64,000 nucleotides of DNA from a virus (IMGVR_UViG_3300015360_000024:1-64000); one strand, 5' to 3'. Shown: positions 2,859 to 45,716, counted from the stretch's first letter. Notes: generated from the sequence alone by a model not told the origin. Numbers and translations: made by a program.

Positions 2859-3088
2859 GGGCCTGCATTCGATGCGGTAACACCAGCGGTTACACCCTCA
2901 TCGGTGGTTCGTGCATTACATGCGAGTACGATGACTCGGACTGCGACGAGCTGGTGGCAAAGGGAAGGGCCGAAGCCGTCGAGGAGACCGTGACGTCGAT
3001 CGTCGCGTGGATGCGCAAGTCATTCGGTCACACCATCCGCAAGGAAGTCCTGGATGCCATTGAGCGTGGCGATTGGAAGAGCCCATGA
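2855..3088 (+). CDS. hypothetical Zn-ribbon protein
   Basis: ATGA overlap; CIRC...CITC. Confidence 0.6.
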   Translation: MRACIRCGNTSGYTLIGGSCITCEYDDSDCDELVAKGRAEAVEETVTSIVAWMRKSFGHTIRKEVLDAIERGDWKSP

Positions 3089-3313
3089 GCATGCGAAGCA
3101 ATCACCCACAGCGTGGCGAGATCGACCGTATCGCCAAGATGCTGATGGATGTCTGGGCAAAGGCCGAACCGGATCACGGCGTCACCAAATACCCCACTCC
3201 ATCTCGCAGTTGCTGTCGCCCGAGAGGTGGGACTACGGCCCCGCGCCAGCCAAGCCTCTCAAGGCGAAGGCCACCTAGACAATCGTCGATACAGGTGCGA
3301 TGGTCCTACGCGA

Positions 3314-3544
3314 ATGTCTGCGCTCATCGAGGGGTTACTGGTCCAGGTCGCCGAGAAGGCTGGCGACGATACGGTTCAGGTCCGTGTTGCCGATCTGAAG
3401 CTGGTGTGCGCTCAGGCGACGGCGCGGGCTCAGATGATCGCCATCTACGAAGAAATGCTGAAGTTGGCTGCTGAGTCCATGACCACCGGACAGCCGAACC
3501 CCGACCTTGTTCAGGTCATCATCAAGGCAATCTCAGCGAGGTAG
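3314..3544 (+). CDS. hypothetical protein
   Basis: MSALIEGLL..., helical; start chosen at the ATG at 3314. Confidence 0.55.
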   Translation: MSALIEGLLVQVAEKAGDDTVQVRVADLKLVCAQATARAQMIAIYEEMLKLAAESMTTGQPNPDLVQVIIKAISAR

Positions 3545-3546
3545 CA

Positions 3547-3996
3547 GTGATCTACGAAATCATTAACCCATCCGATGCCGTCACTATCGAAGCCCAGGAC
3601 TCAGTTCTGGCCTCGATAGCCATCATCGTTCTCGGCAACGGCCAGTACGGTCTCTACGACGAAGACGGCCGCACGGTCCTCGGCATCTTCGCGCTGTCGA
3701 AGCCGGAGAAGTTGATCGAGTGGCTTAGGGATAACGGCGTCGAAGACGCAAAGATGGACGAGTTCTACGCAAAGAACGGGGAAGAGATCGCAGCCATTCT
3801 TGAGTCGGTTGTCTATGGCAAGATTGAAGATCGCAAGGCAATCACGGCGCTGACCGAATCAATGACCAAGTCGGACCGGCTCAAGGCTTTGGCCAAGTAC
3901 AACGACTCCAAGCGGTCGTCGATGAACAACATCGGGTCCGCTGCCTCGGAACTAGCCAAGGGGTTTCGCAAGAAGGCACAGGAAGCTCAGCGATGA
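3547..3996 (+). CDS. hypothetical protein
   Basis: 149 aa, GAGG upstream. Confidence 0.7.
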   Translation: MIYEIINPSDAVTIEAQDSVLASIAIIVLGNGQYGLYDEDGRTVLGIFALSKPEKLIEWLRDNGVEDAKMDEFYAKNGEEIAAILESVVYGKIEDRKAITALTESMTKSDRLKALAKYNDSKRSSMNNIGSAASELAKGFRKKAQEAQR

Positions 3997-4679: not shown

Positions 4680-4807
4680 GCATCACGTACGATCAGAAAC
4701 GACACGTTTTCTATATCGATGTCGGAGACATGGACCCCAAGGAAGCGCTCGCGTACATCGAGAAGGTCCGCGAGGAATACAAGCGCAAGCGGGATGCCCA
4801 GAAGTGA
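4676..4807 (+). CDS. 43-aa protein resembling a T4-type portal segment
   Basis: MSITYDQKRHVFYIDVGDMDPKEALAYIEKVREEYKRK; ATGA and GTGA overlaps at the two ends. Confidence 0.6.
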   Translation: MSITYDQKRHVFYIDVGDMDPKEALAYIEKVREEYKRKRDAQK

Positions 4808-35038: not shown

Positions 35039-35521
35039 GTGGAAACACAAGTATGTAGTAAGTGCAGAAAGCGAAAATCGCTGGCCCATTACTATCATCA
35101 GAATGGCATGACAAACGGCCATCGCCGTGACTGCAAAAGCTGCGTGAAGGCTCGCGTAGCTACGACCAAAGAAAAGAACCGAGACAAATACTTAAAGTCG
35201 AAAAACAAATGTGAATGTGGGGCCACAAAGTCCAGGTATGCCATCGGGTGCCGACGCTGCACGAGAAAGGCGGAATGGCGTCTCAATAAGGGTTATGTCG
35301 TAAAGACGGTTGGCGGTACGCAGATCGCTCAGCACCGCGTTGTGATGGAAGAGTCGCTGGGTCGTAAGCTCAGGGATGACGAAAACGTCCACCATCGCAA
35401 CGGGATCAAGAATGACAACCGTATAGAAAATCTAGAACTATGGAGCACCAGTCAGCCGGCCGGGCAGCGCGTGGAGGATAAACTGGCCTGGTGCCGGTGG
35501 TTTCTTGAGCAGTACCAGTAG
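35039..35521 (+). CDS. HNH homing endonuclease
   Basis: [34 protein letters not shown]; N-terminal Zn finger. Confidence 0.9.
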
Positions 35522-35535
35522 GCTCCACAGCCTGT

Positions 35536-35739
35536 TTACCTTCCGTGACGTCGTTTCTTCTCGTGCGGTGCGATCTGTTCGGCCTTCTTCTTCAGCTGCT
35601 CCTGGCGGGTAGCCCATCGCTGCTTCTGAATGTCTGATCGATCTTCCGTGGTGTGACCACACTGCTGGCAGTAGGTGGTCCGTCCCTCACCGTTACGGTG
35701 AACATCCACGAAACCGTAGCCGCATTTTTCACAGGTCAA
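35536..35739 (-). CDS. small Zn-ribbon protein
   Basis: CEKCG...CQQCG. Confidence 0.6.
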   Translation of the reverse strand: MTCEKCGYGFVDVHRNGEGRTTYCQQCGHTTEDRSDIQKQRWATRQEQLKKKAEQIAPHEKKRRHGR

Positions 35740-36409
35740 TTAGTCCCAGTCTCCTCGAAGGTACTTTTTGAGCTGCCACTGTCGGTTCAGGACGTGATCG
35801 GTCACGACTCCATCCTGTGATCTGATCGTTCGACGCTTGTCCGCGCGCATCCCCGATCCGACTTGCTCTCTGCGTGATGACGACAGGGCTGACGACCTTT
35901 GTTCGTTTGCAGCATCCCATATTCTTGCTCGCAGGACTTCTAGAGCGGTTTCTTTGTTCTGATGCTGAGACCGCTCTGATTCACAGCGTACCTTGATACC
36001 AGTCGGTACGTGCGTGAGAATGACGGCGCTATCCGTCACGTTCCGGTGCTGACCTCCTGCACCAGATCCACGGCAATACGCCCACTTCAAGTCCGCTTCT
36101 CGGACAACGACCTGGGTCTCGGTAGGCTCAGGCAGAACAGCAACCGTAATGGTGCTCGTCTGCATGCGCCCACGCTTCTCTGTGGGAGGAATTCTTTGCC
36201 ACCTGTGTCCACCTGATTCGTTGGCAAACGCGGCGGCAGCGCCCTTCCCTGATGCCCTGAACACGATGAGTCCAGGGCGTTCCTCTACGAGTTCGAGGTC
36301 AAAGTGACCTCCGGCTCCCCATCTTCGCGTAGATCGAGAACTGGTCTTGGACCAATAATTTGGCGTCGTCACCGCCCTCACCGCTTCGTATTTCCACAAA
36401 GACTGACAT
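35740..36409 (-). CDS. class I peptide chain release factor homolog (minimal, about 222 aa) expressed via +1 frameshift
   Basis: Frame 0 MSVFVEIRSGEGGDDAK...RRSL* (36 codons); +1 frame DLELVEE...RWQRIPPTEKRGRMQTS...GSGAGGQH...ERSQHQNK; junction GGAGG-TCA-CTT-TGA-C. Confidence 0.9.
36298..36312 (-). promoter_or_regulatory. prfB-type programmed +1 ribosomal frameshift site
   Basis: Internal SD GGAGG (36312-36308), 3-nt spacer, CTT-TGA-C (36304-36298). Confidence 0.9.
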
Positions 36410-36430: not shown

Positions 36431-36604
36431 TCAGAACTCTATAACTATAACCGTCGACTTGGGCTCGTCCTGGCGCATCGGCCGCTCCTCTTCGTAGTAC
36501 GGCGCCTCGATCTGTAGAGGCTGCTGGATCTTCTCTTGAGGACAGCTTGGACAGTGATGCCAAGCGGGACGCGCATGGGGGCACAGTGGAATGTCCATAC
36601 CCAT
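36431..36604 (-). CDS. hypothetical 57-aa protein
   Basis: MGMDIPLCPH...HCPSCP...VIVIEF, between the ligase and release factor genes. Confidence 0.5.
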   Translation of the reverse strand: MGMDIPLCPHARPAWHHCPSCPQEKIQQPLQIEAPYYEEERPMRQDEPKSTVIVIEF

Positions 36605-44534: not shown

Positions 44535-45716
44535 CTACTCTACGCCCGTCACCACTCCGGCCCCAACGGTCTTACCACCCTCACGGACGGCGAATCGAGT
44601 TCCCGGCTCCATTCCGACTGGCTTGTGCAGCTTGAACGTGATGGCTGCGTGCTCGCCGGGACGAATCATGTCGAGATCTCCAGTGCCCTCCACGGTCCCC
44701 GTGACGTCGGTCGTCCCGAAGAAGAACTGCGGCCGGTATCCCTTGAAGAACGGCGTGTGACGACCGCCCTCGTTCGTGGGAATGACGTACAGCTCTGCGT
44801 GGCCAATCGTGTGCGGCTTCACCGAGCCCGGAGCGATCAGAACCTGGCCACGAACGACCTCGTCCCTCTTCACTCCGCGCAGGAGGATTCCGCAGTTCTC
44901 ACCCGCCCGAGCCTCCTGCTGATCCTTGTGGAACATCTGGATGCCCGTAACAGCGACCTGGCGAGGCTTCTGGTCTTCGCCTTCAAGGCCGATGATCTCG
45001 ACCGTAGCGCCGAGGGCTAGAACGCCTCGGTCGATGCGTCCGGTGACCACGGTGCCACGACCTTCGATCGTGTGAACTCCCTCGATGGGCATCATGAACG
45101 GGGACGTGAAGTCACGGATCGGGTCCGGGAAGTGCTTGTCCATCGTCTCGACCAACTCCTTGATACACGCGACATCCGCGTGATCTTTGCCGTGCTCTCC
45201 GATGGCAGCCAGCGCCTTGAGGGCAGAGCCGCAGACCATCGGCGAGTCGAGGTACTTCTGAGCCTTGAGGAAGTCCGAGGTCTCCTCTTTGACCAGCTCC
45301 AGCAGCTCTGGATCCGCGACGTCCACCTTGTTGATGAACACCACGATGTGCGAGACGCCGACCTGACGAGCCAGAAGGATGTGCTCCTTGGTCTGCGGCT
45401 GAGGTCCCTGAGATCCGTCCACCAGGAGCACTGCGCCGTCCATCTGGGACGCGCCTGTGATCATGTTCTTGATGTAGTCGGCGTGCCCCGGGCAGTCGAT
45501 GTGCGCGTAGTGCCGAGTCTCTGACTCGTACTCGACGTGAGCGATGTTGATGGTGATACCTCTGGCCTTCTCCTCGGGGGCTGAGTCGATCTGATCGAAC
45601 TCGACTGCCTTCCCGCCTCGAATCTTTGCCATCACCTTGGTGATAGCGGCCGTCAGGGTGGTCTTGCCGTGATCGACATGACCGATGGTTCCTACGTTCA
45701 CATGCAACTTGCTCAT
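44535..45716 (-). CDS. tuf: elongation factor Tu (divergent)
   Basis: [51 protein letters not shown]. Confidence 0.97.

Follow-up and report, generated by a model that had tools for sequence, protein, structure and literature searches.

A phage release factor of RF1 type, without domain 1, encoded behind a prfB-style +1 frameshift signal that may sense termination efficiency

Programmed +1 frameshifting at a Shine-Dalgarno (SD)-like sequence followed by CUU-UGA-C is textbook translational autoregulation, and it has been tied to release factor (RF) 2 alone. The prfB gene, which encodes RF2, is said to be autoregulated through a +1 programmed frameshift at an SD-like element, a 3-nt spacer and CUU UGA C, an account that reportedly goes back to Craigen and Caskey in 1986. 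Under the tripeptide rule (Ito et al. 2000), RF1 carries PxT and reads UAA and UAG, and RF2 carries SPF and reads UAA and UGA. Here we describe a release-factor gene on the minus strand of a 64,000-nt window (IMGVR_UViG_3300015360_000024:1-64000, the whole stretch of DNA analysed) from a 194-kb phage genome, in which a signal of the prfB kind interrupts a gene of RF1 type. Our reading, to which we give a probability of roughly 0.6, is that the locus encodes an RF1-derived factor lacking domain 1, placed behind a +1 gate that senses termination efficiency, within an island of translation and RNA-repair genes.

Among 8,164 genomes surveyed for prfB, 98.6% had TGA at the shift site and none had TAG; stop identity at the site was treated as proof of autoregulation, and no programmed frameshift was found in prfA (PMC12421855). 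Reviews and the 2025 survey of more than 12,000 genomes describe an RF1 family without such a frameshift, with TAG never at the site. An RF1-type, domain-1-less factor with a prfB-style gate is not described in the full-text literature searched, and the surveys of RF evolution and of jumbo phages do not mention the family. The phage signal resembles that of prfB in its SD-like purine run, 3-nt spacer, CUU_U, stop and +4 C, in the +1 direction and in lying within a class-I RF gene (PMC12421855), and UAA is rare at the site in both. It differs in that the phage gene is derived from RF1, not RF2, and in that the stop at the gate is not matched to the product within the phage family, where 36 TAG occur among 119 frameshifting relatives against 0 in prfB. 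Moreover, the phage site is at codon 37, in domain 2 (about residue 144 of E. coli RF1), whereas the prfB site is at about codon 26, in domain 1. The two cassettes are therefore not homologous by position, and a prfB-type cassette has evolved convergently at a non-homologous position in the other RF lineage.

The release-factor locus is laid out as follows.
36299..36409, minus strand: open reading frame 0 (ORF0), with ATG 36409-36407, 36 sense codons and the gate stop TGA 36301-36299
36298..36312, minus strand: frameshift cassette GGAGG-TCA-CTT-TGA-C, from sequence reading and the family consensus
36312-36308, minus strand: SD-like GGAGG within the cassette
36307-36305, minus strand: 3-nt spacer TCA within the cassette
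36304-36301, minus strand: slippery CTT_T (CTT 36304-36302) within the cassette
36301-36299, minus strand: gate stop TGA within the cassette, then +4 C at 36298
35740..36300, minus strand: +1 frame, from GAC (Asp37) at 36300-36298 to residue 222, with stop TAA 35742-35740
36181..36189, minus strand: PPT tripeptide, residues 74-76, aligned with PAT/PVT of RF1
36049..36057, minus strand: GGQ catalytic motif, residues 118-120

Read in frame 0 on the minus strand, ORF0 encodes MSVFVEIRSGEGGDDAK...GSRRSL, and the codon-recognition helix motif EIRSGEGGDDAK is encoded within its 36 sense codons; in a whole-genome profile search, PCRF profile positions 100-133 match 36308-36409 in this frame. The +1 frame begins DLELVEERPG... 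and covers the remainder of domain 2 together with domains 3 and 4. Taking CTTT as one step gives a joined product of 222 amino acids (aa), P0001. The first-pass annotation, made from the sequence of the window, had placed the true start at ATG 36409 with a 36-codon ORF0, a signal of the form SD-N3-CUU-UGA-C with an internal GGAGG 3 nt before CUU, and a +1 continuation DLELVEE... holding RWQRIPPTE and GAGGQ. Each of these is confirmed by the minus-strand reading, the signal lying at 36312-36298 and the frame running to TAA 35742-35740. The pattern GGAGGNNNCTTTGAC has 1 match in the window, compared with 0.01 expected from shuffles, and GGAGG-N3-CTTTGA is a single occurrence across the whole 194-kb genome.

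The joined product was compared with profiles of known release factors. P0001 matches the NCBIfam prfA model (TIGR00019) in one uninterrupted alignment, residues 3-222 corresponding to profile positions 114-340 (E 2e-68), with profile positions 1-113 unmatched and a score of 230.8 bits, under the 423.25 cut-off. The RF2 profile matches with E 8e-41, RF1 being ahead of RF2 by 90 bits. Pfam places PCRF 101-194 and the RF-1 domain on the protein, and among solved structures RF1 of T. maritima and of E. coli match best in sequence (E 1e-53 to 1e-50). Structure alignments over domains 2-4 give 41-45% identity to RF1 of E. coli and T. maritima and 38-39% to that of T. thermophilus. The junction is crossed free of gaps in the alignment, with RRSL followed by DLELVE lying over RKGW-NLEVAE and GAGGQ over GAGGQ, while RWQRIPPTE aligns with RVQRVPATE of E. 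coli RF1, in agreement with the RF1-type PxT loop recognised at first pass. An AlphaFold2 model of P0001 has a mean predicted local distance difference test (pLDDT) score of 81.7, with 10-residue block means of at least 90 up to residue 70, and the junction at residues 36/37 falls inside this part of the model. A fold search with the model returned RF1 chains as its top matches.

The PCRF profile matches only two pieces, flanking the shift, at profile positions 100-133 and 153-194, and domain 1 (PCRF positions 1-99) has no match in the 194-kb genome. The earlier estimate of a product of about 222 aa without domain 1 is thereby upheld. The genome-wide profile search, made with a split gene in mind, found no domain 1 encoded elsewhere, and the 57-aa ORF upstream is unrelated. 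A 219-aa ORF in the +1 frame, starting from TTG 36399 without any shift, has a first 33 residues that are unconserved among relatives, and it was rejected because the frame-0 peptide holds a conserved EIRxxEGG helix together with third-position variation. The short factor is derived from RF1 and keeps a stop-reading head with a PPT loop and the GGQ release domain, without domain 1. P0001 retains the Gln of RxQR, the Thr of PxT and the Thr of xTS, which are established structurally as the RF1-type contacts for stop bases 2 and 3. It is thus like canonical RF1 (prfA; TIGR00019; PDB 1RQ0, 2B3T, 5J30) in its PxT-type loop, its GGQ and its best sequence and fold matches, and unlike it in having no domain 1, in scoring under the equivalog cut-off and in having its expression gated by recoding.

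The family was examined through the DNA of 35 viral, 80 genomic and 80 metagenomic loci, parsed with one script, which yielded 150 genes and 142 distinct proteins; the locus sets were drawn from the best 80 hits per scan, and the proportions given here are not population estimates. In the protein search, close relatives fell into two classes, one with about 100% query coverage and one with 84%, starting exactly at residue 37. The second class has non-homologous N-termini ending in GG-x-F-D/S/N, which is GGAGG-NNC-TTT-GAC/AGC/AAC read in the +1 frame; for annotation this means that gene callers truncate such RF genes, which are then seen as 84%-coverage products.

The first-pass annotation had let its claim of a programmed frameshift depend on homologues retaining the SD-CUU-stop signal, and a +1 shift is needed in 119 of the 142 distinct relatives, nearly all at the same codon, 31 codons past the E of the EIR motif. 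An in-frame stop takes the place of the shift in 15 (14 TGA, 1 TAG), 12 of them at the identical codon; a further 6 of the 142 have no internal stop and are in frame, and 2 are more complex. At the gates of the 119 frameshifting relatives, CTT_TGA occurs 80 times, CTT_TAG 36 times (a single TTT_TAG included) and CTT_TAA 3 times, that is 67% TGA, 30% TAG and 3% TAA. The matrix of 116 distinct +1 sites (in %) is C91 G87 G90 A82 G81 G84-NNN-C99 T100 T100 T100, followed by G67/A33 and A70/G30 for the last bases of the stop and C85 at +4, which gives the family consensus CGGAGG-NNN-CTT-T(GA/AG/AA)-C with CGGAGG at -12..-7.

Variation by codon position was measured over 113 aligned genes. Upstream of the site it was 0.71/0.61/1.43 bits across the codon positions of frame 0, and downstream 1.26/0.91/1.65 across those of the +1 frame, with the peak at position 3 in both. 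As the position-3 peak shifts by +1 at the site, purifying selection changes frame exactly there. The run of three Ts is a possible indel site and would favour a sequencing or assembly error or a decaying pseudogene, but the identical +1 site recurs in 119 distinct genes from independent assemblies, including complete Myxococcota isolate chromosomes, and the SD-like run is maintained through codon choice among the frameshifting relatives. Furthermore, an independent groundwater metagenome assembly (L117) holds a near-identical protein (99% in the tree alignment) with an identical site. Set against the switch in the selected frame, error or decay is a practically negligible explanation, and the family comparison indicates that the +1 shift is programmed, neither a sequencing error nor the mark of a pseudogene.

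One in-frame relative from a metagenome (L123) holds CGGAGG-TGT-CTT-GAC, the full cassette minus one T. It may have lost the gate only very recently, or its T run may be misassembled. The terminators of the RF genes themselves are TAA in about half (62 of the 121 parsed), whatever the gate stop and despite G+C-rich contexts.

The 12 relatives with an in-frame stop, TGA in all but one with TAG, at the shift codon (L009, L010, L011, L132, L150, L173, L178, L180, L184, L186, L188 and L191) have CTC, CTA, TAT or CAT before the stop, without the SD-like run and without CTT. Coding density under the standard code is already high at the in-frame-stop loci, by a crude test on short loci. This suggests that the in-frame-stop relatives may be readthrough-gated versions of the RF gene. 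Since the stop is at the same codon in both the slippage and the in-frame-stop relatives, the conserved feature is a weak stop at this position, whatever the means of bypass. A viral parallel is the class-I RF gene of Mimivirus and Megavirus, which is expressed via a frameshift and readthrough (PMC3521657). Like the phage gene, it encodes a viral termination factor that passes its own internal stops by recoding, and both of its bypass types, frameshift and in-frame stop, occur in the phage family; unlike the phage gene, it is of the eukaryotic/archaeal eRF1 type and belongs to a eukaryotic virus, with different signals, position and ancestry (PMC3521657).

From the identity of the signal with that of prfB, we infer a slippage mechanism. 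After 36 codons, peptidyl-tRNA-Leu would lie on CUU in the P site with UGA-C in the A site, UGA before C being expected to terminate poorly. The SD-like GGAGG, 3 nt upstream, would pair with the tail of 16S rRNA, and the tRNA would slip from CUU to UUU, making GAC the next codon, with translation going on to give the 222-aa factor. A release factor arriving first at the UGA would leave only a 36-aa peptide. The yield of the factor would then be inversely coupled to the speed with which the gate stop is recognised in the infected cell, so that the cassette would act as a gate sensing termination efficiency. We likewise infer this inverse coupling, the stop-codon range of the factor and its service within the translation island of the phage, be it as an additional terminator or in rescue. 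Without domain 1, the factor should bind the A site and release the peptide without interacting with RF3, an expectation of RF3-independence based on truncated E. coli RFs (Mora et al. 2003, as that work is cited in PMC6514570).

Under the tripeptide rule, host RF2 and not the product would read the UGA of this phage, and control by host RF2 is what the sequence predicts here; true autoregulation would be confined to relatives with UAG or UAA gates. The first-pass annotation had gone further and proposed a cross-regulatory switch, with a UGA gate built specifically to sense host RF2 and an RF1-type factor turned on when RF2 or termination is compromised; as alternatives it had named a novel codon specificity and a rescue role, either of which may still apply. 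The pairing at the basis of this proposal, a UGA-C gate with an RF1-type tripeptide, does exist in this phage, and UGA is the commonest gate stop (80 of 119). The matching of gate to loop that it implies is not found in the family. UAG stands at the gate in 36 of the 119, including the closest viral relatives L004 and L005, and there is no association between gate stop and tripeptide among the 119 frameshifting relatives (PPT 46 and PPN 20 with UGA; PPT 20 and PPN 7 with UAG). When gate type was scanned against every alignment column, no covariation with the decoding head was seen. The sole association to survive phylogenetically independent pairs was with the residue built from the last two bases of the stop and the next base, which is Asp/Glu after UGA and Ser after UAG.

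The tree (FastTree without bootstraps, with myxobacterial RF1 and RF2 as the root) shows no fewer than 38 changes of gate state, of which 11-12 are forced by well-supported branches, and at least 10 independent well-supported pairs differ in their gate stop. Near-identical pairs with different gate stops include L050/L055, L144/L155 and L038/L167, and the clade of the window is itself mixed, with UGA in the window, L117 and L002 and UAG in L004 and L005. A design dependent on RF2 should not tolerate such repeated replacement by an RF1 codon, and a dedicated cross-regulatory switch is therefore decidedly unlikely. The UGA found here appears to be just one among the interchangeable states of a stop gate that would be generic. 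Since the gate stop is unmatched to the factor across the family, general termination capacity is, in our reading, what the gate senses.

L004, L005 (RF at 3001-3658), the closest UAG-gated viral relatives, and the in-frame P0008 have lost the PPTEKRG recognition loop while keeping GGQ; they read RWQEKSGGRMQTS or RWQEVSGRTMQTS, and stop-codon reading in these three may be altered or lost. The RF gene of another locus (L027), gated by TTT TAG C, is followed about 1 kb downstream, at 4725-4801, by a tRNA whose CUA anticodon is of the amber suppressor type (ARAGORN label 'Pyl').

Several observations weigh against the preferred reading, a gate that senses general termination capacity in front of an RF1-derived factor. 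The SD-like run is wholly missing at 14 of the 116 sites. UGA and UAG gates interchange between near-identical genes, and if host factors alone were sensed, the two would answer to different host proteins; the interchange may fit better a factor that reads both codons, or a gate that needs just a weak stop. Furthermore, the decoding head is non-canonical, with PPT/PPN for P(A/V)T, Gln for the His of GRxHTS in this phage, GGxDAK for GGxEA, and a domain 2 shorter by about 6 residues; some relatives show the tripeptide variants SPT, SPL, PST and PET, plus loop deletions. The tripeptide rule may therefore not hold, and a broadened specificity is not to be dismissed. Either the gate works without regard to what the factor recognises, or UGA and UAG are both recognised by that factor.

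The second of these possibilities leads to true autoregulation as in prfB, by a short factor of broadened, possibly omnipotent specificity that reads UGA, UAG and UAA. The swapping of UGA and UAG gates among near-identical genes without a compensating change in the protein would fit it, as would the departures of the head just listed (PPT/PPN, His to Gln, and SPT and SPL in some relatives). A gate passing from UGA to UAG without losing its stop must go through UAA, which only 3 of 119 have; overly efficient termination at a codon open to either host factor would account for this, and the rarity speaks for the general sensor and against a purpose-built sensor of RF2. As UAA is similarly rare in prfB (PMC12421855), it also counts in favour of autoregulation. 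Against it, the RF1-type contacts in RxQR, PxT and xTS are kept, and the hidden Markov model scores prefer RF1 over RF2 by the 90 bits given above; we consider autoregulation possible, if doubtful. As for its strongest form, we know of no natural omnipotent RF of bacterial type, and that the short factor is such a protein, reading all three stops without domain 1, seems to us unlikely. We retain a sensor of general termination capacity as the preferred reading.

The genes around the RF gene lie in a single-strand island with 44 tRNA genes, and include the following.
45126-45707, minus strand: EF-Tu-family GTPase gene in the same tRNA island (PF00009, 208 bits, 401-aa frame)
39234-39554, minus strand: Pth2-like peptidyl-tRNA hydrolase gene (PF01981, 25.7 bits, cut-off 23)
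38108-38683, minus strand: HNH endonuclease gene
37587-38132, minus strand: HNH endonuclease gene
36616-37233, minus strand: RNA ligase-like gene, 200 nt upstream of the RF gene (phrog_548 'RNA ligase', 2e-10 on the intact L002 orthologue)
36431..36604, minus strand: 57-aa Cys-rich ORF immediately before the RF gene, with which it is syntenic in the close clade
35536..35739, minus strand: 67-aa zinc-ribbon-like ORF, one base past the RF stop (Zn_ribbon_8, weak), syntenic in the close clade
35039-35521, plus strand: HNH endonuclease gene, the three HNH genes lying in 3.6 kb around the RF gene

The RNA ligase-like gene contains the motifs KLDGSN, EGVVGK and AKAK. It is interrupted by an in-frame TAG at 36960-36958, where L117, L002, L019 and L021 have TGG (Trp) or TTT (Phe); lying beside an RF1-type gene, this TAG may be a nonsense mutation or a read-through amber codon.

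This neighbourhood bears on a role in ribosome rescue of the PrfH or ArfB kind, for example after cleavage of tRNA or rRNA by host defence nucleases, with the gate boosting synthesis when A sites are left unread. The factor is without domain 1, like PrfH, and RNA ligase-like, Pth2-like and tRNA genes are nearby; in L019 and L021, of a second clade, an RNA ligase-like gene likewise adjoins the RF gene, although this linkage is confined to the two clades. PrfH is not, to our knowledge, frameshift-gated. It resembles the phage factor as a sporadic, domain-1-less class-I RF homologue (PrfH/RFH; TIGR03072; PDB 7SA4, 9MOR; PMC1586002), but the phage factor retains RF1-type recognition elements, has no RtcB partner, and matches the PrfH model with E 1e-24 and 87 bits, under the 166.65 cut-off. 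A partnership with RtcB like that of PrfH was rejected, no RtcB being present in the 194-kb genome or among the Myxococcota neighbours tested, and the nearby RNA ligase-like gene being unrelated to RtcB. The ArfB model (NF006718) matches P0001 in the GGQ region only (41 vs 100 bits), and ArfB, a protein of about 140 aa with a GGQ domain and a basic C-terminal tail, has no codon-reading domain, unlike the phage factor with its domain 2. Finally, the conservation of RF1-type stop-reading elements across the family argues for stop-codon reading, and a rescue factor is a quite improbable reading of the gene.

One tRNA gene of the island, at 38827-38899 (minus strand; Rfam tRNA, 33.5 bits), has a 9-nt anticodon loop, CUUAAGCAA, for which ARAGORN gives the 4-base anticodon 'taag'. 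This enlarged-loop tRNA is conserved at 80-83% in three related phages (L206/L207 1501-1578, minus strand; L208 1505-1579). It was considered as a trans-acting CUU_U shifter and rejected, as it is absent near the RF gene of the similarly gated L005 and from most loci.

The phage uses the standard code. The 240 long ORFs, which cover 88% of the genome, end in TGA (107), TAG (75) or TAA (58), so that over half of the phage genes end in codons that an RF1-type factor reads. An alternative genetic code was accordingly set aside, given 88% coding density and the use of all three stops under table 11. The stop-recoded Lak, Agate and Jade phages have RF1 or RF2 genes for which no frameshift is reported (bioRxiv 10.1101/2021.08.26.457843). 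They are like this phage in carrying RF genes near tRNA genes, and unlike it in that theirs belong to a code-switch module with TAG or TGA reassigned, whereas this phage keeps the standard code with all three stops.

The viral loci of the family are on contigs of 23-482 kb, about two-thirds of them above 100 kb, and the RF gene lies inside a tRNA array in about two-thirds of the viral loci. The same gated gene is found in Myxococcota chromosomes, among them, as complete genomes, those of Minicystis rosea, with CTT TGA C, and Archangium gephyra, with CTT TAG C; in both, ordinary RF1, RF2 and ArfB-like genes are also present. The Myxococcota neighbours tested have housekeeping-type Pfam matches (glycosyltransferase, type II/IV secretion ATPase, methylmalonyl-CoA mutase) or none, with no common synteny and no RtcB. 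A core gene of Myxococcota was rejected as an interpretation: of 121 genomes sampled from the phylum, 2 have the short form, the others matching through full-length RF1 alone. In the rooted tree the family is on one side, with phage, metagenome and myxobacterial rows intermixed. Altogether this looks like a mobile family carried mainly by phages, with occasional copies in chromosomes.

What is new here is the presence of stop identities unseen in prfB (UAG) at a prfB-style gate, in an RF1-derived lineage and in more than 100 diverged genes of huge phages and some Myxococcota. In our best account, the protein is an auxiliary phage terminator whose synthesis rises when stops are read slowly, as part of a toolkit that keeps translation running; such a toolkit would serve in a host whose machinery is limiting or under attack. 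If the factor were instead a reader of all three stops, the interchangeability of UGA and UAG would be explained and every gate variant would be an autoregulatory loop. In that case the phages, like a few Myxococcota, would possess a universal terminator that limits itself and does without RF3, and proper termination would be maintained when host RF1 or RF2 is limiting or disabled. The family offers a natural experiment on what the cassette senses and on whether a class-I factor works without domain 1 in vivo. It is likewise one on why large phages bring their own terminator together with tRNAs, EF-Tu, Pth2 and RNA ligase.
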